Source of the DNA: Alphaproteobacteria bacterium
GTDB lineage: Bacteria; Pseudomonadota; Alphaproteobacteria; JAPYRI01
Direction: 5' to 3'
Assembly: GCA_029941135.1 (NCBI GenBank)
Contig: JAPYRI010000004.1
Span: 3,116 to 67,115, forward strand
DNA: 64,000 bases
Both the position numbers and the translations under genes were made by a program. Shown here piece after piece: positions 2,716 through 13,058 of this stretch. The notes under the pieces were generated by a model. That model saw only the letters and a program-made list of their open reading frames with translations, had not been told where the DNA came from and ran no database searches. The stretch's first letter is position 1; each line of letters opens with the position of its first letter.

Positions 2716-3135
2716 CTAGTCTACCGTGCGCAAGGCGTTGATTGCTGCTTCGAACGGCAGCAACACACAGGCGTGGCGGCTTTTGTGATCGGCAACCGGC
2801 AAGAAAATGCTGAGCGCTTCCCATTTCCCCTGAGGCACCGGCGCATCCTGCTTCAACATGGCCGATATCTGCGATTGCACATTCTCGAGAGTTGATGCGT
2901 CGGCACCGATCGCTTTATCACATAAAATCGACGCGCTCGCCTGACAGAGCACACAGGCTTTGGCTTCGTGGGCAATGTCAGAAATCGCCCCGTCACTGAG
3001 TTTGATGTCGATGGTCACCCGGTCGCCACATAACGGGTTATCGAGCATGACGGAGCCGTCAGGATCGTCAAGCCGGCCGGCCCGGTGGGCGGCTGCGGCA
3101 TGGTGCAACACGTCTTTCTGATACAAGTTGGTCAT
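2716..3135 (-). CDS. SufU/IscU-like Fe-S/sulfur-transfer scaffold protein (NifU N-terminal-like, SufE-like partner of SufS)
   Basis: The motifs NPLCGDRVTIDIKL...HEAKACVLCQASASIL match the SufU/IscU-type cysteine pattern. The start codon overlaps the sufS stop (ATGA). Confidence 0.65.
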   Translation of the reverse strand: MTNLYQKDVLHHAAAAHRAGRLDDPDGSVMLDNPLCGDRVTIDIKLSDGAISDIAHEAKACVLCQASASILCDKAIGADASTLENVQSQISAMLKQDAPVPQGKWEALSIFLPVADHKSRHACVLLPFEAAINALRTVD

Positions 3136-4412
3136 GGTTTTAGCAGCTTAATGACGTCGTCGAGGCCATTCAAGAAAGCGTCTACATCGCCATCATTGTT
3201 ATAAAGGGCAACGCTCGCCCGCGTGGTGCCAGTCAATCCGAAAAAATCCATCAAGGGTTGCGCGCAATGGTGACCCCCGCGCAAGGCAACCCCATGGCCA
3301 TCCAAGAGCTGGCATATATCGTGGGGGTGCAGTCCTTCAATGGCGAACGATACCACCGGCAGGCGGTTGTCCAACTCGCGCGGACCGATCAGCCGAATGA
3401 GCCCGCGGTTATTGTCGATGTCATCCAATCCGTCTATCAAGCGGCCGGTTAAACGTTGCTCGTGCCGGGCTGCGCCCGTCAAGTCCTGCGCGCAGAGCCA
3501 CGCAAGTGCCGCCCCCAACCCCACCGCTTGGGCGATCGGTGGAGTGCCGGCCTCAAACCGGTGTGGCGGTTCGGCATAAATGGTTTCATCCAGTGTCACC
3601 GTGCGGATCATTTCGCCGCCCCCCATAAACGGGGGCAGGGCGTCCAAGACCTCAGAGCGGCCCCACAGAACGCCGACCCCATTGGGGCCAAATGTCTTGT
3701 GACTGGAAAATCCATAAAAATCCACACCCAAGGCTTGTACATCGATGGGTCCGTGAGGCGCGCGCTGGGCGCCATCCAGCAGCACCTTCGCGCCGACCGC
3801 ACGAGCTGCCGCCACAATCGGTGCAACGTTGGTCATGGCGCCGGATACATTGGAGCCATGGGTCACCGCAATCAGTTTGGTGCGGGGGGTGACGATTGCT
3901 TGGAGCGCTGCAAGGTCAACCGCGCCGTCGGCGCTGGCGGATAGTACTCTTAGGGTAATGCCAATCCGGTCGCGCACCATTTGCCAGGGGACAATGTTGC
4001 TGTGGTGCTCTACTTGGCTAATGACGACCTCGTCGCCCGGTTGCAGAGTGCCGCCAAATGCATGTGCCACCAAATTTATGGCGCCGGTCGTGCCCGAGGT
4101 GAAGACGATTTCGGTGGGGCTGGTGGCATTCAGGAATTGGGCCACTTGCCCGCGCGCCGCCTCAAACGCTTCGGTGGCTTCTTCGGCCAAGTGGTGGATG
4201 CTGCGCATGACGTTGGCCCGGTGCCGGGAGTCATGAACGGCAACAGCATCCAGCACCGCGCGCGGGGTCTGCGCGGTCGCAGCATTGTCTAAATAATGGA
4301 GCGGCTGCCCGTCTATCTCGCGCTCGAATATGGGGAACTGAGCACGTACAGCCTCAACGTTGTAAGCGGACGTGGCGTCTTTGCCTGAGTTGGCTACCTT
4401 CGAATTACTCAT
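3132..4412 (-). CDS. sufS: Cysteine desulfurase, SufS/CsdA-type (class V aminotransferase)
   Basis: The protein has LDNAATAQTP at the N-terminus, the PLP-lysine motif FYGFSSHKTFGPNGVGVLWGR, and a C-terminal segment ...RASVALYNNDGDVDAFL... The ORF is open from 4640, but the likely start is MSNSKVANSG... at 4412, which gives about 426 aa. Confidence 0.85.
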   Translation of the reverse strand: MSNSKVANSGKDATSAYNVEAVRAQFPIFEREIDGQPLHYLDNAATAQTPRAVLDAVAVHDSRHRANVMRSIHHLAEEATEAFEAARGQVAQFLNATSPTEIVFTSGTTGAINLVAHAFGGTLQPGDEVVISQVEHHSNIVPWQMVRDRIGITLRVLSASADGAVDLAALQAIVTPRTKLIAVTHGSNVSGAMTNVAPIVAAARAVGAKVLLDGAQRAPHGPIDVQALGVDFYGFSSHKTFGPNGVGVLWGRSEVLDALPPFMGGGEMIRTVTLDETIYAEPPHRFEAGTPPIAQAVGLGAALAWLCAQDLTGAARHEQRLTGRLIDGLDDIDNNRGLIRLIGPRELDNRLPVVSFAIEGLHPHDICQLLDGHGVALRGGHHCAQPLMDFFGLTGTTRASVALYNNDGDVDAFLNGLDDVIKLLKP

Positions 4413-6030
4413 CGCTTGCCCGGGTTGCCGCCTGGAGCGCCTCGGGCGTATCCAGATCGAGAAAGATGGCATCGTCCTCCATTGGCACCTCACATACGAG
4501 ATCGGCGTTTTCGCCAATAATGTGGCGCGCGCCGACATCACCGGCAACTTGCGCCATTTCAGCAAAGAATTGTGCCGGCCAAAGCACCGGATTGCCACGT
4601 TTGCCGTCCTTGGTGGGCACACAAATGGCTCGGCATTCATCAGGGTCGAAGGCGGCGATCAATTGGCTCATGTGATCGGCGGTGACTCGCGGCATGTCGC
4701 CCAAGCATACCAGCACCCCATCCACATCGCCGGGCAAGGCATTGAGGCCTACGCGCAATGACGTGCTGAGTCCCGCGGCGTAATCGGGATTGTGATAGAT
4801 CATGACGCTTTTGCCATCGAGTGCCGTCGCTACCCGATCCGCTTCATGGCCGGTGACCACCACCACCGGAACTGCGCCGGACGCGATCGCCGCGTCAACC
4901 ACTCGCGCCACCATAGGTGCGCCACCAACACTCGCGAGCAATTTATTGGTTTTGCCCATGCGCCGCGACTGCCCGGCGGCAAGCACCAGTGCGGCAATCT
5001 TTTTAGGCGCGATCGCTTGGGGCTCCAAGGCCTCACGCGGTTGGGGACGACCGGCAATTTCCTTCAAAAGTCCACCCGCACCCATGAGCATGATGTCACG
5101 TCGGGTGACCGGTATTCCCGCGGCGATCCGCTCCAATACCCAGTCAAAGCCGTTCAGTTTGGGGGAGCGGGCACAGCCTGGGACACCAATCACCGGTACC
5201 GCACCATAGTGGGCGAGCAGCAACAAGTTGCCTGGGTCAACCGGCATGCCGAAATGATCGATGGTGCCTCCCGCGCGCTCTATCCCCATGGGCACCACGT
5301 CACGCCGGTCAACTGTAGCCGATGCGCCCAGCACCAAAATGGGCGTGCATCCGGCCTCTACCAAATCGCGAACACTATCGGCAACAGCATCCGGCGTGTG
5401 GGTGCACCGCCGCTGCTCGGCGACCGTGCCTTTGACCCCAGCGATACGCGTCGCCAGGACGCTCTCAGCTTTTTTGAGCACTTTATCGCGGGCGCCGGGC
5501 AGCACTGTCAAAACAACTCCCATGCGGCGGGGCACAAACGGTGCGACCCGTAGCAACGGGCCATCATCGCTTGCGATATGCTCCGCCTCACCAACGGCGG
5601 CCTCCGGCGCCGCCAGAGGAATGATTTTGACCGTGCCGACCATCTGCCCTTCGGTAACGCGGGAATAAGGCTGAAGCGCGGCCACTGTGACGGATTCATG
5701 GAGCAGGTTGAGGCGGTCGATGCGGGCCGGATCGGCGATCAAGATGCCGTCGATTTCAGCGTAAATATTGGCGCGTCCGGTAAACGGCTCGGCAGCGCGC
5801 ACGCCCAACCCCGCGGCAGAGGCAGCAACTTGTTCAGCGGCAACGTCCTCGGGCACGTCGCCCACCTCGAGCTTAGCTGCCAATATCGTTGCATGATTAT
5901 GGGCGTGGAGCTTGACCAAATCCTGTTTGGATAAGATGCGCCCTTTTTTAAACGCCAAGCCCCCGAGCCGCATGCTGTGGGCAAGGATCGCGCCTTCGGC
6001 CTCGGCAAGCGGTAAATGATCGAAAATCAT
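4405..6030 (-). CDS. Fusion protein: MoeA/MoCF-biosynthesis (molybdopterin-binding) domains plus C-terminal MobA/MocA-like molybdenum cofactor nucleotidyltransferase
   Basis: The C-terminal half (KIAALVLAAGQSRRMGKTNKLL...VVVTGHEADRV...VLVCLGDMPRV) matches the MobA/MocA NTP-transferase fold. The N-terminal half (GILIADP...VLTVLPGARD...ILVLGASATVDRRDVVP...PVDPGNLLLLAHYGAVPVIGVPGC) is MoeA/CinA-like. There is a 4-nt overlap with the upstream xdhC. Confidence 0.7.
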   Translation of the reverse strand: MIFDHLPLAEAEGAILAHSMRLGGLAFKKGRILSKQDLVKLHAHNHATILAAKLEVGDVPEDVAAEQVAASAAGLGVRAAEPFTGRANIYAEIDGILIADPARIDRLNLLHESVTVAALQPYSRVTEGQMVGTVKIIPLAAPEAAVGEAEHIASDDGPLLRVAPFVPRRMGVVLTVLPGARDKVLKKAESVLATRIAGVKGTVAEQRRCTHTPDAVADSVRDLVEAGCTPILVLGASATVDRRDVVPMGIERAGGTIDHFGMPVDPGNLLLLAHYGAVPVIGVPGCARSPKLNGFDWVLERIAAGIPVTRRDIMLMGAGGLLKEIAGRPQPREALEPQAIAPKKIAALVLAAGQSRRMGKTNKLLASVGGAPMVARVVDAAIASGAVPVVVVTGHEADRVATALDGKSVMIYHNPDYAAGLSTSLRVGLNALPGDVDGVLVCLGDMPRVTADHMSQLIAAFDPDECRAICVPTKDGKRGNPVLWPAQFFAEMAQVAGDVGARHIIGENADLVCEVPMEDDAIFLDLDTPEALQAATRASDE

Positions 6031-6725
6031 GACAGGCCCGGTCGGCGCAGCCGTTCGGTAACTTGGGCCAATATCGACACCGCGATTTCGGACGGGGACC
6101 GGGCGCCAATGTCCAAACCGATGGGGCCATGGATTTGAGCGATAAAATCGTCAGTAAGCCCACGCTCCTTGAGCCGTTCGACGCGCTTCGCGTGGCTGCG
6201 TTTACTGCCCAAGGCGCCGATGTAGAATGCCTCTGAATGAAGTGCGACGCTGAGCGCCGAGTCGTCCAGCTTGGGGTCATGAGTCAACGATACCACCGCC
6301 GTGCGCCTGTCCAAGCCGAGCTCTTCCAAGGCCTCGTCGGGCCATTCGATGCGCAACTCCATACCAGGAAACCGTTCAGGTGTGGCAAAAGCGCGGCGTG
6401 GGTCCACAACAATGACCTGATACCCCGCCACCTCGGCCATCACGGACAGGGGCTGCGAAATATGGACCGCCCCCACAATGATCATACGCAGGGGGGGATT
6501 GAAGACGTTCAAGAATACCTCGCCGTCAGGGGTTTCGACCGTCCGGCCTTTATCCACGTGCGCTGCTTCGCACGCCGCTTTAATTAGAATTTTATTGACC
6601 GTTTTAGTATTATTATCAAATGGATAAATCAGTATTTGCTCATTCGACTTTAAGTTTGTCGCGAGCACGACAGAGCGCTTTTGGGCACGGTCATCAAGGA
6701 GGCGGTAGAGGGTTTCGGACCGCAT
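6027..6725 (-). CDS. XdhC/CoxI family Moco-insertion chaperone, Rossmann-like C-terminal domain ORF
   Basis: The segment ...NPPLRMIIVGAVHISQPLSVMAEVAGYQVIVVDPRRAF... is typical of XdhC_C. Confidence 0.75.
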   Translation of the reverse strand: MRSETLYRLLDDRAQKRSVVLATNLKSNEQILIYPFDNNTKTVNKILIKAACEAAHVDKGRTVETPDGEVFLNVFNPPLRMIIVGAVHISQPLSVMAEVAGYQVIVVDPRRAFATPERFPGMELRIEWPDEALEELGLDRRTAVVSLTHDPKLDDSALSVALHSEAFYIGALGSKRSHAKRVERLKERGLTDDFIAQIHGPIGLDIGARSPSEIAVSILAQVTERLRRPGLS

Positions 6726-6733
6726 GATTGGGA

Positions 6734-7123
6734 TTACCCGATCCGTTCGACCAGGATGCGCACTTCGCCGCCGCAGGTGAGACCCGCCTCCCAGGCGTTA
6801 TCGTCCGACACGCCGAAATCGAGCAGCTTGTGTTCACCGGATTGAATGACGTCTAGCGCTTCCGCAACCACCGCCCCTTCGATGCAACCGCCGCTGACCG
6901 AGCCGGTAAATTGACCACCCTCATCAATGGCGAGCAGACTGCCGACCGGACGCGGGGACGAGCCCCAAGTGGCGACGACGGTCGCGAGCGCAACGCCCTT
7001 GTTATCAGCTTTCCACTGGGCGGCTTGTTCAAGGACTGCATCGTGGCTCGGGTAGGGGTCGCCGGTTGGGTTCATGGGTACCTCGTAAGCGATTTCAGCC
7101 GCCACCTTTGAGGGCCGCTTCAA
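6734..7123 (-). CDS. XdhC/CoxI family protein, N-terminal domain ORF (the two ORFs form a split XdhC)
   Basis: The segment ...VALATVVATWGSSPRPVGSLLAIDEGGQFTGSVSGGCIEGAVVAEALDVIQSGE... is the XdhC_CoxI N-domain. The annotated start overlaps the upstream FAD-subunit gene by 29 nt, so the true start may be the internal M at 7075. Confidence 0.7.
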   Translation of the reverse strand: MKRPSKVAAEIAYEVPMNPTGDPYPSHDAVLEQAAQWKADNKGVALATVVATWGSSPRPVGSLLAIDEGGQFTGSVSGGCIEGAVVAEALDVIQSGEHKLLDFGVSDDNAWEAGLTCGGEVRILVERIG

Positions 7124-7901
7124 CTGCCCGGGTGGCCATTATTTTGACCAGATTTGCCCGATACTCAGGCCCAGCATAAAGATCGGTATTCATGCCGTCG
7201 GGGGAAATCGTCATGTCGGCGAGTGCGGACGGCGAAAAATCACGGGTCAGTGCCTCTTCCATTTGGGCCTCGCGGTAAACACACGGGCCTGCGCCAGTGA
7301 CCGCCGCTCGCACATCGGTGCCGAATTTCGCAATAAAAACACCAACTACCGCATAGCGCGACGCCGGGTGGTCGAATTTCATATAGGCCGCCAGCTCCGG
7401 CACCGGAAAATCAACCGAGGTCACAATTTCGTCCCCGGCCAAAGCTGTCTCGAAGAGGGCGGTGAAGAAATCATCGGCCGCAATCTGCCGTTTGGAGGTG
7501 TGGACAGTGGCTCCCAACCCGATCAGAGCGGCCGGGTAATCCGCTGCCGGGTCGTTGTTGGCGATGGAGCCGCCCAAGGTTCCTCGATTGCGCACGTGCA
7601 TGTCGCCGATATTCCCGGCCAAGCCAGCAAGGGCGGGGAGGGCGGCCTGCACCTCGGGTGATGAGGCGACCGACGCGTGTGTCAACATAGCGCCCACGGA
7701 TACCTGGGCTTTTTTAACGTCAATCATTACGAGGCCCGGCACTTCGGCCAGATCAATCACATCTGAAGGCGCCGCCAATCTTTGTTTGAGGGTCGGAATC
7801 ATGGTTTGACCGCCCGCCATAAGTAAGGGATCCTCCGCTGTGCGCAAGAAATTGGCAGCGTCTTCCAAGGATTGGGGCCGGTGATAGGCGAAATCATGCA
7901 T
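7095..7901 (-). CDS. Molybdenum hydroxylase FAD-binding (medium, CoxM/XdhB-like) subunit, copy 1
   Basis: The N-terminus MHDFAYHRPQSLEDAANFL...AGGQTMIPTLKQRL and the internal ...GTLGGSIANNDPAADYPAALIGLGA... match the CO-dehydrogenase flavoprotein family. Confidence 0.85.
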   Translation of the reverse strand: MHDFAYHRPQSLEDAANFLRTAEDPLLMAGGQTMIPTLKQRLAAPSDVIDLAEVPGLVMIDVKKAQVSVGAMLTHASVASSPEVQAALPALAGLAGNIGDMHVRNRGTLGGSIANNDPAADYPAALIGLGATVHTSKRQIAADDFFTALFETALAGDEIVTSVDFPVPELAAYMKFDHPASRYAVVGVFIAKFGTDVRAAVTGAGPCVYREAQMEEALTRDFSPSALADMTISPDGMNTDLYAGPEYRANLVKIMATRAVEAALKGGG

Positions 7902-7910
7902 GGCGCGGCC

Positions 7911-8387
7911 CTACCCGCCTGCTTCGTTCATGGCATGCGCGCCGGCGACAATCGACTTCACAATATTGTGGTAGCCGGTACAGCGGCAAAAATTGCCTGA
8001 AAGCTCACGGCGCACCGTGGCGTCGTCCACATCCGGGAAGCGGCGGGCGATATCAAGCCCGGCCATAACCATGCCCGACGTGCAAAACCCGCACTGGAGA
8101 CCATGGTTTTCGCGGAAAGCCGCCTGCATGGGATGAAGGGTGTCGCCGTCCGCGACCCCCTCAATCGTCAGCACGTCGGCATCTGCCGCTTGCACGGCGA
8201 GTATGGTGCAGGATTTGACCGGTATGCCGTCCATATGAACCACACACGCCCCGCATTGGCTGGTGTCACAGCCCACGTGGGTGCCCGTCAGGCGGAGTTG
8301 TTCGCGCAGCAACTGCACGAGTAATGTCCGGTTTTCAACCTCGACCGAAACCTCGGCGCCATTAACAGTCATTGAAACAGTAGGCAT
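7911..8387 (-). CDS. Molybdenum hydroxylase (2Fe-2S)-binding small subunit, copy 1
   Basis: The plant-type and second [2Fe-2S] motifs are present: [16 protein letters not shown]...[10 protein letters not shown]...CRCTGY. Confidence 0.9.
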
Positions 8388-8395
8388 GATACTTG

Positions 8396-8647
8396 TTAGC
8401 CTCCCCGAATGGCGGGTAGGAAATACACCTCGCTGGTAGGACCAATGTCCTCAAGCCAGGCATCTTGATGCAAATTTCCGTCGATTGCCACGGCCATACT
8501 GCCGTCTTGCAGCACCTCAGCGATGCCGGGAAATTTCTGATCGAGTTTGCGAATGAGATCGCGAACGTCGGTCACATCCATGTCGAGCGTCGTCTCACCA
8601 CCGGTAAACTGACGGCCCAGATCATTGGTGAGAACAATCTGGGCCAT
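8396..8647 (-). CDS. MoaD/ThiS-family ubiquitin-like protein (C-terminal GG)
   Basis: The 83-aa protein ends ...[11 protein letters not shown], the size and C-terminal Gly-Gly of sulfur-carrier and related MoaD-like proteins. It sits between the large subunit gene and the second S/M pair. Confidence 0.6.
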
Positions 8648-8651
8648 TAGT

Positions 8652-10916
8652 TTAGCTGCCGTTTTTGATCGCCGCCAAAATTTTAGGCGGTGACAAAGGA
8701 AGATCGGTCATACGGACGCCGATGGCGTTGGACACGGCATTCGCGACCGCGCCCAAAGGCGGAATGATAGGCACTTCGCCGACCCCACGTACTCCAAACG
8801 GATGAGCTTCGTTGGGCACTTCAATAATCACCGTATCGATCATCGGCAGGTCGGACGCAACCGGCATGCGGTAATCGAGGAAACCGGTGTTCTGCAGACA
8901 TCCATCGTCGCCGTAGACGTATTCTTCGTTCAAGGCCCAGCCGACCCCTTGGGCGACACCGCCTTGGATTTGCCCTTCCACGTAACTGGGGTGGATGGCG
9001 CGGCCGACGTCTTGCACGGCGGTGTAGCGCAGCACGGTGACGTGACCGGTTTCCGGGTCAACTTCCACATCGACGATATGGGTGCCGAAACCGGGTGCTG
9101 CGCCTTGGGCGTTGATAGCGGCGCGACCGGTGATCGGCCCGCCCATCTTGGCCGATGTGCGTGCGATGTCGGCGAGCGACATGGGCTCGAAGTCGCCAGC
9201 ATTGGGCCCGGCGGGCCGGGCGTGGCCTTCGCTCCATTCGACCGCATCTGGGCTGATATCCCACACTTTGGCGGCGCGTGTGCGCATTTGGTCAACCGCG
9301 TCGGTGGCCGCATTACACACTGCCATGCCACTGGCAAAGGTGGTGCGGCTACCGCCGGTCAAGTCGTTGTAGCCAATGGAACTGGTATCAGCGACGATCG
9401 GACGCACTTTGTCGTAGTCGATGCCGAGTACCTCGGCGGCCATGGCTGCCATGCTGGCGCGTGAACCGCCGATATCCGGATTGCCCGACAACACAACCGC
9501 TGTTCCATCGGTGTTGATGTTCACAGACGCGACAGATTCACCCCCCACGTTGAACCAAAACCCGCTCGCCACACCTCGACCCTGGTTGGGGCCGAGCGGT
9601 GCTGAGTAGTGGGGGTGGTTTTTTGCGGCCTCTAAGCATTGTTCGTTGCCGATGGGGCCAAACTTGGGGCCATAAGGCGCGGTCGTGCCTTCCTTGGCGG
9701 CGTTCAATTCGCGCAGGGCAATGGGATCCATGCCAAGTTTCTGCGCCATTTCGTCAATGACGCTCTCAACCGCGAACTCGGACATTGGCGCCCCGGGAGC
9801 CCGGTAGGCCGCAGCTTGAGGGCGATTAACCACCACATCAAAGCCAACAGTCTTTACGTTCTCGAGGTTGTAAGGCGCAAATGCTGTCATGGCGCCCGGC
9901 CCAACAGGTGAGCCAGGATAGCAGCCCGCTTGATAGCGCAATTCGGCTTCACCGGCGGTCAATTTACCGTCCTTAGTAGCGCCTAATTTAACATCGATAG
10001 ACGTACCAGACGTGGGGCCAGTAGCCCGCATAACCTCTTCACGGGTCATGGTCATTTTGACCGGTTTGCCAGCCCTGCCCGAAAGCGCCATGGCGACAGG
10101 CTCCAAGTAGATGACGGTTTTGCCACCAAATCCGCCGCCGATCTCAGCCGGAATAACCCGGATTTGGGCTTCATCAATCTGCATCAGACGGGCGCAATAG
10201 GACCTCACCATGAACTGGCCTTGGCTGCTGCACCAAATTGTGACCTGGCCATCTTCGGCGACACTAACTACGGCACCGTGGGGCTCGAGATAGCCCTGGT
10301 GAGCGGGTTTGGTCTTAAAAGTGCGTTCGATGATCACGTCAGCCGCGGCAAAACCCGCTTCCAGGTCGCCGAAGCCGAATTCGCAGCGGGAGGCGACGTT
10401 GGACGCCTTCGTCGGCGCCGGATCCACTCCAACAGTGATCATTTTTTTGTGCAGAAGCGGTGCTTTTGGTTTCATCGCTTCGTCCACGTCAATGACATGG
10501 GGCAGCACTTGATACTCAACTTTTATGAGCGACAGCGCTTTATCGGCGATGGCCGATGTGGTTGCCGCAACTGCGGCCACCGGATGGCCGTCATACAGGA
10601 CTTTCTTGCGCGCCATCAACTTGTCGGACATTTCGCTAAAATTGGCCGCCAGAATGCCGATCGAAATGGTCTTGTTGGGCAGATTTGGGAAGTCCTTGCC
10701 GATAACCACTGATTTCACGCCGGCGAGCTTTTCTGCCTTGCTGGTATCGATTGATTTAATTTTTGCATGCGCATGCGGGCTTCGGAGGATTTTACCGATC
10801 AGCATTCCCGGCATGCTGCTATCGGCCGAAAACAATGCCCGCCCGGTGACTTTGTCGGTACCATCGGGACGAACCGTCCGCTTACCGACCCATTTATAGT
10901 TGCCATCCACACCCAT
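8652..10916 (-). CDS. Xanthine dehydrogenase/CO dehydrogenase family molybdopterin-binding large subunit
   Basis: The 754-aa protein carries the Moco-domain motifs ...AEIGGGFGGKTV... and ...QAAAYRAPGAPM..., and has the aldehyde-oxidase / xanthine-dehydrogenase a/b-hammerhead plus Moco-binding architecture. Confidence 0.9.
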   Translation of the reverse strand: MGVDGNYKWVGKRTVRPDGTDKVTGRALFSADSSMPGMLIGKILRSPHAHAKIKSIDTSKAEKLAGVKSVVIGKDFPNLPNKTISIGILAANFSEMSDKLMARKKVLYDGHPVAAVAATTSAIADKALSLIKVEYQVLPHVIDVDEAMKPKAPLLHKKMITVGVDPAPTKASNVASRCEFGFGDLEAGFAAADVIIERTFKTKPAHQGYLEPHGAVVSVAEDGQVTIWCSSQGQFMVRSYCARLMQIDEAQIRVIPAEIGGGFGGKTVIYLEPVAMALSGRAGKPVKMTMTREEVMRATGPTSGTSIDVKLGATKDGKLTAGEAELRYQAGCYPGSPVGPGAMTAFAPYNLENVKTVGFDVVVNRPQAAAYRAPGAPMSEFAVESVIDEMAQKLGMDPIALRELNAAKEGTTAPYGPKFGPIGNEQCLEAAKNHPHYSAPLGPNQGRGVASGFWFNVGGESVASVNINTDGTAVVLSGNPDIGGSRASMAAMAAEVLGIDYDKVRPIVADTSSIGYNDLTGGSRTTFASGMAVCNAATDAVDQMRTRAAKVWDISPDAVEWSEGHARPAGPNAGDFEPMSLADIARTSAKMGGPITGRAAINAQGAAPGFGTHIVDVEVDPETGHVTVLRYTAVQDVGRAIHPSYVEGQIQGGVAQGVGWALNEEYVYGDDGCLQNTGFLDYRMPVASDLPMIDTVIIEVPNEAHPFGVRGVGEVPIIPPLGAVANAVSNAIGVRMTDLPLSPPKILAAIKNGS

Positions 10917-10918
10917 GA

Positions 10919-11395
10919 TTATTCTCCTCTCATTTCAGCAGCCACGTCCATGACGGACTTTACAATTTTGTCGTAACCCGTGCACCGGCACAGGTTGCCC
11001 GCAAGCCAATATCGAACTTCGGTTTCGGTCGGATTGTCGTTTCTATCCAGTAGAGACTTTGCGGCTACCAAAAAACCCGGTGTGCAAAATCCGCATTGCA
11101 ATGCTGCTTCTTCTAAAAATTTTTGCTGCAGTGGGTGCAGGGTATCGCCTTCGGCCATGTTTTCGATGGTTTCGATTTTGCGGCCCTCAGCTTCAGCGCC
11201 CAACACGAGGCAGGCACAGACTAGGCGACCGTCAATTGTGACACTGCAAGCGCCGCAGTCCCCTGAAGAACACCCTTCCTTACTGCCGGTCAGGTCCAAT
11301 TGATCGCGCAGTATATCGAGCAGGGTTTCCTGGGGTTCGCACAGAAACTCTACCGGTTCACCATTGACTGTAGATGTTACGTGGTGTTTCGACAT
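10919..11395 (-). CDS. Molybdenum hydroxylase (2Fe-2S)-binding small subunit, copy 2
   Basis: The motifs GCSSGDCGACSVTIDG...CGFCTPGFLV...CRCTGY are present. Confidence 0.9.
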   Translation of the reverse strand: MSKHHVTSTVNGEPVEFLCEPQETLLDILRDQLDLTGSKEGCSSGDCGACSVTIDGRLVCACLVLGAEAEGRKIETIENMAEGDTLHPLQQKFLEEAALQCGFCTPGFLVAAKSLLDRNDNPTETEVRYWLAGNLCRCTGYDKIVKSVMDVAAEMRGE

Positions 11396-11398
11396 TCT

Positions 11399-12265
11399 TT
11401 AACTCCTTGTACGTTCGAAGGCAATCAAAGCGGCCCGGCAGGCGAGAACACCCGCAACTTGGGTCCGGTATTCAATCGTGCCCCGCATATCATCAATGGG
11501 GTTGCAGGCAGCACTGGCTGCTGCTGCTAGTGCGTTCAGAGCGGCATCGTCGATCTTTGTGCCAATCAGTGCTTTCGCGCCATCAGCGACCAAAAGTACG
11601 ATCGGAGCGACCGCGCCTATGGCTACGCGCGCAGCGGTGCATGTGCCGCTTTTGTCGACGGTCAGACTTACGCCTGCGCCGACCATGGCAATGTCCATCT
11701 CGGTGCGTGGGATCATGCGCAGGTAAGCGTCCCCGGAACGGGGTGCAGGTTTAGGAAGGGTGAAATAAACGACAATCTCGCCTTTTTTGAGGACGGTCTT
11801 GCCCGGGCCTTTGCTGATTTTTTCAACCGGTACTTTGCGCCGGCCATTGGGTCCGGCGATGGTCGCGACGGCACTGGCTGCAATCAGGGCAGGGACGCTA
11901 TCAGCGGCGGGCGATGCGTTACACAAATTGCCGCCCAATGTCGCGCGCCCCTGAATTTGAGTGGAGCCGATGAGGTCCAAGGCTTCACAAACGCCCGGCC
12001 AGGCCTTTTTAAGCCGCTTATGTTCATTCACCTCCGCGCCGCAGACCGCTGCACCAATGCGAAAATCGTTCTTGTTGACGCTGATCGAGCACATCTCGTC
12101 GATGGACTTCACGTCAACAATTAAGCCGGGTTTTAGGCGTCCGGCCCGCAATTGCACCAGCAGATCAGTCCCGCCTGCCAGCACTCGTGCGCTGTTCCCA
12201 CCGTTTGCCATGAGCCCAACCGCTTCTTTTATCGAAGCGGGAGCTGCGTATTCTATTTGCGCCAT
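11399..12265 (-). CDS. Molybdenum hydroxylase FAD-binding (medium) subunit, copy 2
   Basis: The motifs ...VLAGGTDLLVQLR... and ...ATLGGNLCNASPAADSVPALIA... are present. Confidence 0.85.
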   Translation of the reverse strand: MAQIEYAAPASIKEAVGLMANGGNSARVLAGGTDLLVQLRAGRLKPGLIVDVKSIDEMCSISVNKNDFRIGAAVCGAEVNEHKRLKKAWPGVCEALDLIGSTQIQGRATLGGNLCNASPAADSVPALIAASAVATIAGPNGRRKVPVEKISKGPGKTVLKKGEIVVYFTLPKPAPRSGDAYLRMIPRTEMDIAMVGAGVSLTVDKSGTCTAARVAIGAVAPIVLLVADGAKALIGTKIDDAALNALAAAASAACNPIDDMRGTIEYRTQVAGVLACRAALIAFERTRS

Positions 12266-12404
12266 GTCTCTCCCCTATTCACCAAGTCGACTTAGACGAG
12301 TTTTCCATTAATCCGTCCATAAAAATAAGTGTGTCTGGAAGGCGTGTCAGCGAACATGGTTTCCAGTCAGAACGACCTATACCATGCTCCCCGCACGTCG
12401 AGAA

Positions 12405-13058
12405 TCAGTTGCCACCATTAAAATACCACTGACCGAGCATCCACAACAGGATCAAGGCACCAATCCAGACCATCGGATTAATCCCGCCATCCTCCTCGTA
12501 CTCCTCCACATTGATATCTTCTTCCTCGATTTCATCGCTCAATAAATCGGTGAGCGCGGAAAAAAACTGGTCTGCCAGTTTTGCCGCTGTACCTTCAATG
12601 AGGCGCGATCCGATTTGGGCCAATTTTCCACCAACTACGGCGTCGACGTCATAGGTCAGTCTGGTGTTGTCCCCATCGGTGGTCAAAACCACCTTGGCAC
12701 CGCCCTTGGCGAAACCCGCCGCTCCGCCCTGGCCTTCACCTGAAATGGTATAGCCGTTGGGCGGATCAAGGTCGGAAAGAGTAACTTCGCCTTTAAATTT
12801 GGCTTTGACCGGGCCGACCTTAATGGTCACCGCCGCCGTCATCTCGGTATTTGACAGCTTCTCAATTTCCTCACACCCAGGAATGCATACTTTCAACACT
12901 TCCGGGTCATTGAGGGCGTCCCAAACCTGTTCCCGTGTTGCCGGAATCGAGTACTCGCCCTTGATTTTCAACGAAATCCCTTTCGTTCTAATGGGAATGC
13001 CGCCCGAGCTTTCCCCCTCCCGTAGAGTTGATTTAGCGGCTTTACGGCCATCCGGCAA
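12405..13058 (-). CDS. CoxG-like SRPBCC protein (carbon monoxide dehydrogenase subunit G family) with acidic linker and C-terminal membrane anchor
   Basis: The core ...KIKGEYSIPATREQVWDALNDPEVLKVCIPGCEEIE...VKAKFKGEVTLSDLDPPNGYTISGEGQGGAAGFAKG... matches CoxG. The C-terminus EEEDINVEEYEEDGGINPMVWIGALILLWMLGQWYF is a hydrophobic tail. Confidence 0.8.
   Translation of the reverse strand: MPDGRKAAKSTLREGESSGGIPIRTKGISLKIKGEYSIPATREQVWDALNDPEVLKVCIPGCEEIEKLSNTEMTAAVTIKVGPVKAKFKGEVTLSDLDPPNGYTISGEGQGGAAGFAKGGAKVVLTTDGDNTRLTYDVDAVVGGKLAQIGSRLIEGTAAKLADQFFSALTDLLSDEIEEEDINVEEYEEDGGINPMVWIGALILLWMLGQWYFNGGN

Follow-up and report, generated by a model that had tools for sequence, protein, structure and literature searches.

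No enzyme of the xanthine oxidase (XO) family can do without a sulfur (or S-Cu) ligand on its molybdenum. The subject here is a pair of neighbouring genes from an alphaproteobacterium (Alphaproteobacteria bacterium, lineage JAPYRI01; assembly GCA_029941135.1) that encode a SufS cysteine desulfurase and a SufU-like sulfur carrier. The two genes stand at the end of a tightly packed molybdenum (Mo) hydroxylase operon, which occupies positions 2716-13058 of the minus strand of the window, i.e. the whole stretch of 64,000 nucleotides that was analysed (contig JAPYRI010000004.1, positions 3,116 to 67,115). SufS and the SufU-like protein probably constitute a self-contained sulfur-mobilizing pair for the maturation of XO-family Mo-enzymes, and not a system for iron-sulfur (Fe-S) cluster assembly.

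Known systems and their relation to the operon

Sulfuration of the molybdenum cofactor (Moco) by XdhC and NifS4 of Rhodobacter capsulatus was reportedly described by Neumann et al. in 2007, and to our knowledge NifS4 of this organism is the only bacterial sulfur donor that has been identified. R. capsulatus XdhC is reported to take over Moco directly from the Moco-forming enzyme, with sulfuration by the desulfurase NifS4 (PMC13653126; PMC2997495). NifS4 is described in review as apparently essential for viability, with an additional essential role (PMC2997495; PMC13653126). The operon resembles this system, as judged from the genes alone, in that an XdhC-family chaperone would hold the cofactor and a cysteine desulfurase dependent on pyridoxal phosphate (PLP) would give the sulfido ligand before insertion. 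It differs in that the desulfurase is encoded in the operon itself and belongs to a separate SufS lineage, whereas the reviews do not describe NifS4 as a member of the xdh operon. A further difference is that XdhC comes in two pieces and a SufU-like carrier is added, with a MoeA-like::MocA fusion between them.

The eukaryotic Moco sulfurase ABA3/MOCOS is a SufS-like desulfurase that is dedicated to the sulfido ligand on Moco of XO-family enzymes (PMC13653126). A SufS-type desulfurase with the same dedication is what is proposed here. The ABA3 desulfurase, however, is fused to a C-terminal Moco-binding domain, whereas the acceptor functions of the operon would lie with a separate carrier and XdhC. 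The SufS protein of the operon shows no C-terminal Moco-binding domain; Pfam gives only Aminotran_5 and related PLP-enzyme families, all over the same region.

For the CoxD-CoxE-CoxF route of Oligotropha carboxidovorans CO dehydrogenase, the authors call the sulfur source unknown, and no desulfurase or carrier is assigned there (PMC4240915). Most loci related to the operon are like the CoxDEF system in that their xdhC genes are immediately preceded by coxD (AAA+) and coxE (VWA), and tblastn of the active-site segment shows a form II AYRGAGR loop in their large subunits. The operon itself is unlike it: coxD and coxE are absent, although a coxD/coxE-like pair lies on another contig of the genome (C125), and the active-site loop of the large subunit is the generic AAYRAPGA.

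The pair also resembles SufS-SufU of Bacillus subtilis and Mycobacterium tuberculosis (5XT5, 8ODQ, 9DDD), in which a group II desulfurase is found beside a small zinc-site sulfurtransferase; the Cys/Asp/Cys/Cys set of the latter is kept in the carrier. Those pairs feed SufBCD, and work with the SufBCD scaffold is a mark of SufU, whereas the genome considered here has no sufB and no sufC above cut-off.

Literature searches turned up the NifS4 and CoxDEF work only, and no SufU or dedicated SufS tied to xdhC or cox clusters was found. The XdhC-plus-desulfurase route of sulfuration is known. What the analysis adds to it is that an in-operon SufS and the SUF system complement each other, that the carrier forms the conserved core of the module and occurs fused to MocA, and that the module is optional.

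The SufS and SufU-like proteins

SufS (3132-4412, minus strand; 426 amino acids, aa) is a group II cysteine desulfurase. It scores 510 bits on TIGR01979, above the family cut-off of 475.1, and 440 bits on Pfam Aminotran_5. Solved SufS/CsdB chains in the PDB match it, down to an expectation value (E) of 1e-114, and both its PLP-lysine motif, SSHK (K239), and its catalytic-cysteine motif, HHCAQP (C383), align with the same motifs of solved SufS chains.

The SufU-like protein (2716-3135, minus strand; 139 aa), encoded by the final gene of the operon, has a Pfam NifU_N domain. Its best NCBIfam model is SufU (TIGR01994), on which it scores 89.3 bits, under the cut-off of 92.5; other models are far lower, with 38 bits for NifU and 26 bits for IscU. 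Residues 2-135 align with the SufU-type chains of S. pyogenes and M. tuberculosis. The motifs of the carrier are DNPLCGDR, which holds C36 and D38, C61-x-L-C64 and R120-H-x-C123-V-x-L-P-F. The SufU-type zinc ligands C36, D38, C61 and C123 are invariant in an alignment with 31 relatives. Aside from its TIGR01994 score below cut-off, the carrier differs from canonical SufU in an extra cysteine, C64, which lies three residues past C61 and is invariant in the carrier clade, whereas the position is Ser in both canonical SufU chains aligned (1SU0 and the 9DCL sequence).

The top PDB match of the carrier is 5UFT (E 7e-31, full length), followed by canonical SufU chains. This closest solved relative, titled 'Nitrogen-fixing NifU-like, N-terminal', has Ser in place of D38, Gly in place of C64 and Ser in place of C123, and to judge from these replacements it is a degenerate paralogue.

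Gene coupling and the SUF and ISC content of the genome

The sequence-only reading had placed the two genes at the 3′ end of the operon, coupled to xdhC and a MocA-type fusion gene, and the junctions bear this out. The gene for the C-terminal half of XdhC, xdhC(C) (6027-6725), overlaps the MoeA-like::MocA fusion gene (4405-6030) by 4 nt (nucleotides; 6027/6030), the fusion gene overlaps sufS by 8 nt (ATGAGTAA, 4405/4412), and sufS overlaps the SufU-like gene by 4 nt (ATGA, 3132/3135), all on the minus strand. There is no other suf gene within the operon, as had also been noted for sufB, sufC, sufD and sufA, and the searches for sufB, sufC and SufE give none above cut-off in the rest of the assembly. 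The region 3′ of the SufU-like gene holds just one convergent short open reading frame (ORF) and a decayed short-chain dehydrogenase/reductase (SDR) gene, and a terminator scan of this region gave no convincing site beside the stop codon. The arrangement that would have made the pair part of an ordinary suf operon, i.e. the only sufS of the genome with sufBCD just downstream, is therefore not what is present, as the convergent ORF and decayed SDR gene occupy that place.

The assembly, 95.3% complete, measures 3.02 Mb and consists of 178 contigs. SufS of the operon is the sole SufS above cut-off in all of it. Neither sufB nor SufE has any match there, and no sufC exceeds the cut-off; no search was aimed at sufD alone. 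A complete isc row is present, iscR-nifS-iscS-iscU-iscA-hscB-hscA-fdx-iscX, spread over the ends of contigs C52 and C130. The idea that the pair belongs to a housekeeping SUF operon is rejected, because sufB, sufC and SufE were not found and ISC is complete. The expectation that the pair is an extra copy beside a sufBCDS operon also fails: the SufS of the operon is the only one of the genome, sufB and sufC are missing, and an extra copy of this kind is seen in only 2 of the 25 other genomes that have an in-operon SufS.

As a side observation, the isc operon itself carries a second, NifS-like desulfurase gene, located between iscR and iscS (C52:17974-19044).

Conservation of the carrier gene

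Species-representative genomes, one per species, were scanned for the carrier. At least 569 SufU-like matches were found, and the best 80 loci were analysed with 10-kb flanks; 77 of these have at least 1.3 kb upstream, and position counts refer to the 77. In 72 of the 77 loci, xdhC(N)-xdhC(C)-MoeA-like::MocA precede the carrier gene and share its strand. SufS stands between the fusion gene and the carrier in 25 of these 72; the immediate upstream neighbour of the carrier is the MocA domain in 46 (two with a larger gap) and XdhC(C) in 1. The proposed co-conservation of the pair with xdhC thus stands for the carrier, which follows xdhC and the fusion in 72 of 77 loci, and falls short for SufS, which is present in only 25. 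The conserved element is the SufU-like carrier and SufS is facultative.

Relatives at 50-74% identity have rows of the type coxG-S-L-M-coxD-coxE-xdhC(N)-xdhC(C)-fusion-(SufS)-SufU-like. Alpha- and Betaproteobacteria alike show this order and orientation, with stop codons that overlap the next start. A profile search of 1.84 billion representative proteins gave 172 clusters at E ≤ 1e-30. Among the proteins is a natural MocA::SufU-like fusion of 353 aa (P0138), encoded right after an unsplit XdhC (GCA_044232495.1, on a 3.25-kb contig; seen as protein only).

The carrier adjoins other genes in the remaining five of the 77 loci, namely nhaB in four loci of one lineage and a ThiF-family gene in one. 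In the first four (L039, L048, L082 and L091) a lone SufU-like gene is divergent from nhaB and keeps all four cysteines and the aspartate; going by the Paremcibacter title of L082, the lineage is apparently Emcibacter-like. In the fifth (L042:4042-5518), a Geminicoccaceae metagenome-assembled genome, the SufU-like gene is solitary and adjoins a ThiF-family (E1-like) gene, an arrangement that hints at another use of the carrier.

A second sample takes one genome per family within the class, 151 in all. A SufU-like match is found in 46 of them and a full-length fusion gene in 56. Where carrier and fusion gene are adjacent, they adjoin directly in 11 genomes and are separated by a gap of 1.23-1.30 kb in 12; all 11 of the gaps that were fetched encode SufS, 52-68% identical to the SufS of the operon. 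The 23 non-adjacent SufU-like matches are mostly the weaker ones. Linkage is very strong in the closer carrier clade, yet the carrier is an optional part of the cassette.

Complementarity of the operon-linked SufS and the SUF system

The distribution of the facultative SufS follows that of sufB. Among the other genomes with an in-operon SufS, 2 of 25 have sufB, versus 21 of the 25 genomes whose locus has none; with the genome considered here included, the figures are 2 of 26 versus 21 of 25 (naive Fisher p = 2e-8). Genomes that lack both sufB and an adjacent SufS have SufS elsewhere in 4 cases out of 4. For sufB-bearing genomes without an adjacent SufS, 4 of the 5 SufS genes that were located adjoin sufB, and in the others SufS is presumed from sufB.

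Because the SufU tree is weakly resolved, the Fisher values are given as naive and the one-per-family sample is added, in which sufB is present in 1 of 12 genomes with an in-operon SufS versus 10 of 11 without (p = 1e-4). It should be borne in mind that the best-80 and one-per-family samples share some genomes and that relatives are not independent; the p-values are upper estimates of strength. The 26 operon-linked copies of SufS form a group in a tree of this protein, joined by a relocated copy in Zavarzinia, and a branch with 96% support in the SH-like approximate likelihood ratio test (SH-aLRT) sets this group apart from the sufB-linked housekeeping copies, which come from bacteria of the same kinds. 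The operon-linked SufS is a lineage separate from housekeeping SufS.

The simplest reading of the complementarity is that the carrier depends on a partner of the SufS type, with the housekeeping SufS borrowed where there is one and a private SufS brought along in ISC-only genomes. Use of the housekeeping enzyme in SUF genomes and of its own SufS in ISC-only genomes would point to a specific requirement of the carrier for a SufS-type desulfurase. A complete ISC system with no sufB or sufC, a carrier that ends the xdhC/fusion cassette, a SufS lineage of its own and the presence of this SufS where SUF is absent all support the view that the pair mobilizes sulfur for Mo-enzyme maturation.

A proposed path of sulfur to the cofactor

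A path can be drawn from these components. SufS, by means of PLP, would take sulfur off L-cysteine and keep it as a persulfide on C383. The sulfur would then pass to the SufU-like carrier, pictured with a zinc site as in B. subtilis SufU and with the additional invariant C64. From the carrier it would go to Moco, which the MoeA-like::MocA fusion would already have converted to the cytosine dinucleotide form and which would be held by the two-piece XdhC. There a sulfido ligand would replace an oxo ligand on Mo, after which XdhC would insert the cofactor into the large subunit. The first transfer, from SufS to the carrier, is suggested by homology to SufS-SufU, and a subsequent transfer from the carrier to XdhC/Moco, with Mo=S as the product, is what we infer. 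Persulfide transfer to an XdhC-bound cofactor, which formed part of the sequence-only reading, would belong to this last stage.

Co-folding of XdhC(N), XdhC(C) and the carrier gives a model that scores 0.37, against 0.06 for the best control, and that weakly supports such an encounter. At least 94% of contacts are shared between the runs, and the predicted local distance difference test (pLDDT) value of the partners is at least 88. In the calibration, 58 of 80 solved complexes and 2 of 110 mismatched pairs came up to the mark; scores of 0.60 or below comprise only 7 of the 80 solved complexes, but both of the mismatches that passed.

A more specific proposal, whose parts taken jointly we would put at an even chance, is that the carrier clade (DNPLCGDR...CxLC...RHxCVxLPF) is a Moco-specific sulfurtransferase. 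It would accept persulfide from a SufS-type desulfurase only and deliver it to the molybdopterin cytosine dinucleotide (MCD) on XdhC. It would further fill the place of the missing sulfur donor where form II CO-dehydrogenase-like enzymes mature by the CoxD/CoxE-type route. As part of the same proposal, C64 could help to reduce the persulfide to sulfide, a role that is speculation. If the carrier does accept persulfide only from a SufS-type desulfurase, this would explain the private SufS in ISC-only genomes. Should the proposal be true, Moco would be a third kind of target for proteins of the SufU/IscU fold, besides Fe-S scaffolds.

The widespread operon-encoded pair, made up of a SufS from a private lineage and a SufU-like carrier of a distinct kind, is a concrete and testable candidate for a sulfur donor. 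The pair may also help the heterologous expression of active Mo-hydroxylases in hosts that have no matching donor.

Points against and alternative explanations

Several observations weigh against the pair as a sulfur supply for Mo-enzymes. R. capsulatus NifS4 acts directly on XdhC, with no carrier (PMC2997495). The SufU-like protein of the operon is just below the SufU family cut-off. The best 80 loci were picked by similarity, so that the tightness of linkage in them is overstated; in the sample of one genome per family, the 56 fusion-bearing genomes have the carrier adjacent in 23, elsewhere in 12 and not at all (at E ≤ 1e-15) in 21. Once identity falls below about 45%, SufU-like relatives often stand alone. 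The SufU tree is poorly resolved, with only 1 pair on well-supported branches, and independent gains are not countable.

The alternative that survives best, although it is unlikely, is a private Fe-S supply, with the SufU-like protein as an IscU-type scaffold or sulfur donor for the two [2Fe-2S] clusters of the upstream small subunits. Two such subunits are indeed encoded in the operon (S1 by Pfam, S2 by similarity to S1), and the SufU-like protein is a member of the NifU_N/IscU superfamily that keeps three cysteines and the aspartate. However, the genome already has a full ISC system, and the gene is found after MocA/XdhC and not beside the S subunits in 72 of 77 loci. The carrier also exists as a fusion to MocA. 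At the protein level, the full-length alignment is to SufU-type zinc sulfurtransferases and not to IscU scaffolds (TIGR01994 89 versus IscU 26 bits), and the IscU-type H-C pair is absent, the sequence being R-H-x-C.

A little less probable again is that the pair feeds the MoaD/ThiS-like protein with a C-terminal GG that is encoded at 8396-8647, in which case the product would be a thiocarboxylate for the molybdopterin dithiolene and not the Mo=S ligand. A ThiS-family GG protein is encoded both in this operon and in that of the closest relative, and the one solitary SufU-like gene that adjoins a ThiF-family gene (L042) points the same way. Against this, tblastn with the ThiS-like protein, a short query, finds no such gene in 80 related loci, and the operon has no gene for an E1 protein (MoeB/ThiF) or MoaE. 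Furthermore, the conserved neighbours XdhC and MocA act downstream of molybdopterin synthesis.

That the linkage has no functional meaning, and that a general sulfur-trafficking module (e.g. for thio-cofactors or tRNA) travels with the cox cassette by chance, is very improbable. Many genomes do have the same maturation cassette without the carrier, and in some lineages the carrier is solitary. Yet gene order, strand and the overlap of stops with starts are repeated in Alpha- and Betaproteobacteria alike, a fusion of the carrier with MocA exists, and the operon-linked SufS forms one lineage.

Least probable is a role of SufS as a selenocysteine lyase, by which the module would equip Mo with a labile selenium ligand of the kind found in selenium-dependent molybdenum hydroxylases. 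Selenocysteine is indeed another substrate of SufS/CsdB enzymes, close homologues in the PDB carry the title selenocysteine lyase and the genome has selD, but selD is on another contig (C29; the selD search covered this genome only), selenium-enzyme models are far under their cut-offs on the large subunit, which matches no NCBIfam equivalog, and the in-operon SufS is dispensable where a housekeeping SufS exists, which fits ordinary sulfur chemistry. The selD match itself (C29:1580-2497) lies inside an open frame of 758 aa, which may encode a fused SelD.

Neighbouring maturation and structural genes

In the order of transcription, the operon comprises genes for a CoxG-like protein, M2, S2, L, a ThiS/MoaD-like protein, S1, M1, xdhC(N), xdhC(C), the fusion, SufS and the SufU-like protein, all on the minus strand. 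Next to the pair is the fusion protein of 541 aa (4405-6030). Its residues 345-533 are a Moco cytidylyltransferase domain of the MocA type (NTP_transf_3, TIGR03310). The N-terminal 340 residues (5011-6030) have no match in Pfam or PDB sequence searches. An AlphaFold2 (AF2) model of residues 1-340 has a pLDDT of 88.8, and its top Foldseek matches are all Mo-insertases of the MoeA, gephyrin E or Cnx1E type (E about 1e-6, probability 1.0); the template modelling score (TM-score) is only about 0.28, a value that is accounted for by a hinged multidomain protein. According to the model, the N-terminal domain is a divergent Mo-insertase-like domain with a MoeA/gephyrin-E-like fold. It is kept in about 64 related loci.

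XdhC is split into an N-terminal half of 129 aa with an XdhC_CoxI domain (6734-7123; Pfam E 1e-24) and a C-terminal, Rossmann half of 232 aa, which has its own gene (6027-6725; Pfam XdhC_C, E 4e-43). The split is kept in about 60 related loci, and two cysteines of XdhC(N), C80 and C117, are invariant in the alignment. Sulfuration of Moco by the R. capsulatus type of route is marked by an XdhC-family chaperone whose gene accompanies those of an XO-family enzyme, and in the operon both halves of XdhC follow the L, S and M genes.

The set of xdhC, fusion and SufS/SufU-like genes may have a wider range than the operon. The genome has a single xdhC, a single MocA fusion and a single SufU-like gene, versus at least five other XO-family L genes (contigs C5, C11, C12, C40, C82 and C125), and the set therefore probably serves several enzymes. 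The suggestion of an enzyme-dedicated sulfuration pathway can be kept to the extent that Mo-hydroxylase maturation is favoured over general Fe-S assembly, but dedication to a single enzyme is probably too narrow.

The first gene of the operon (12405-13058) encodes the CoxG-like protein. The label comes from the sequence-only reading; no NCBIfam model matches the protein, and tblastn matches it to a gene with Pfam COXG in the Zavarzinia locus. M2 (11399-12265) is a second flavin adenine dinucleotide (FAD) subunit by NCBIfam FAD-subunit models. S2 (10919-11395), a second [2Fe-2S] small subunit, is identified solely via its 45% identity to S1. Pfam domains identify L, the Mo-binding large subunit (8652-10916), the ThiS/MoaD-like protein of 83 aa with its C-terminal GG (8396-8647), the [2Fe-2S] small subunit S1 (7911-8387) and M1 (7095-7901). 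S1 and M1 are adjacent without L between them, and the contig of the closest relative reads L-ThiS-S-M-coxD-coxE-xdhC; it looks as if the maturation cassette has become attached to another set of structural genes.

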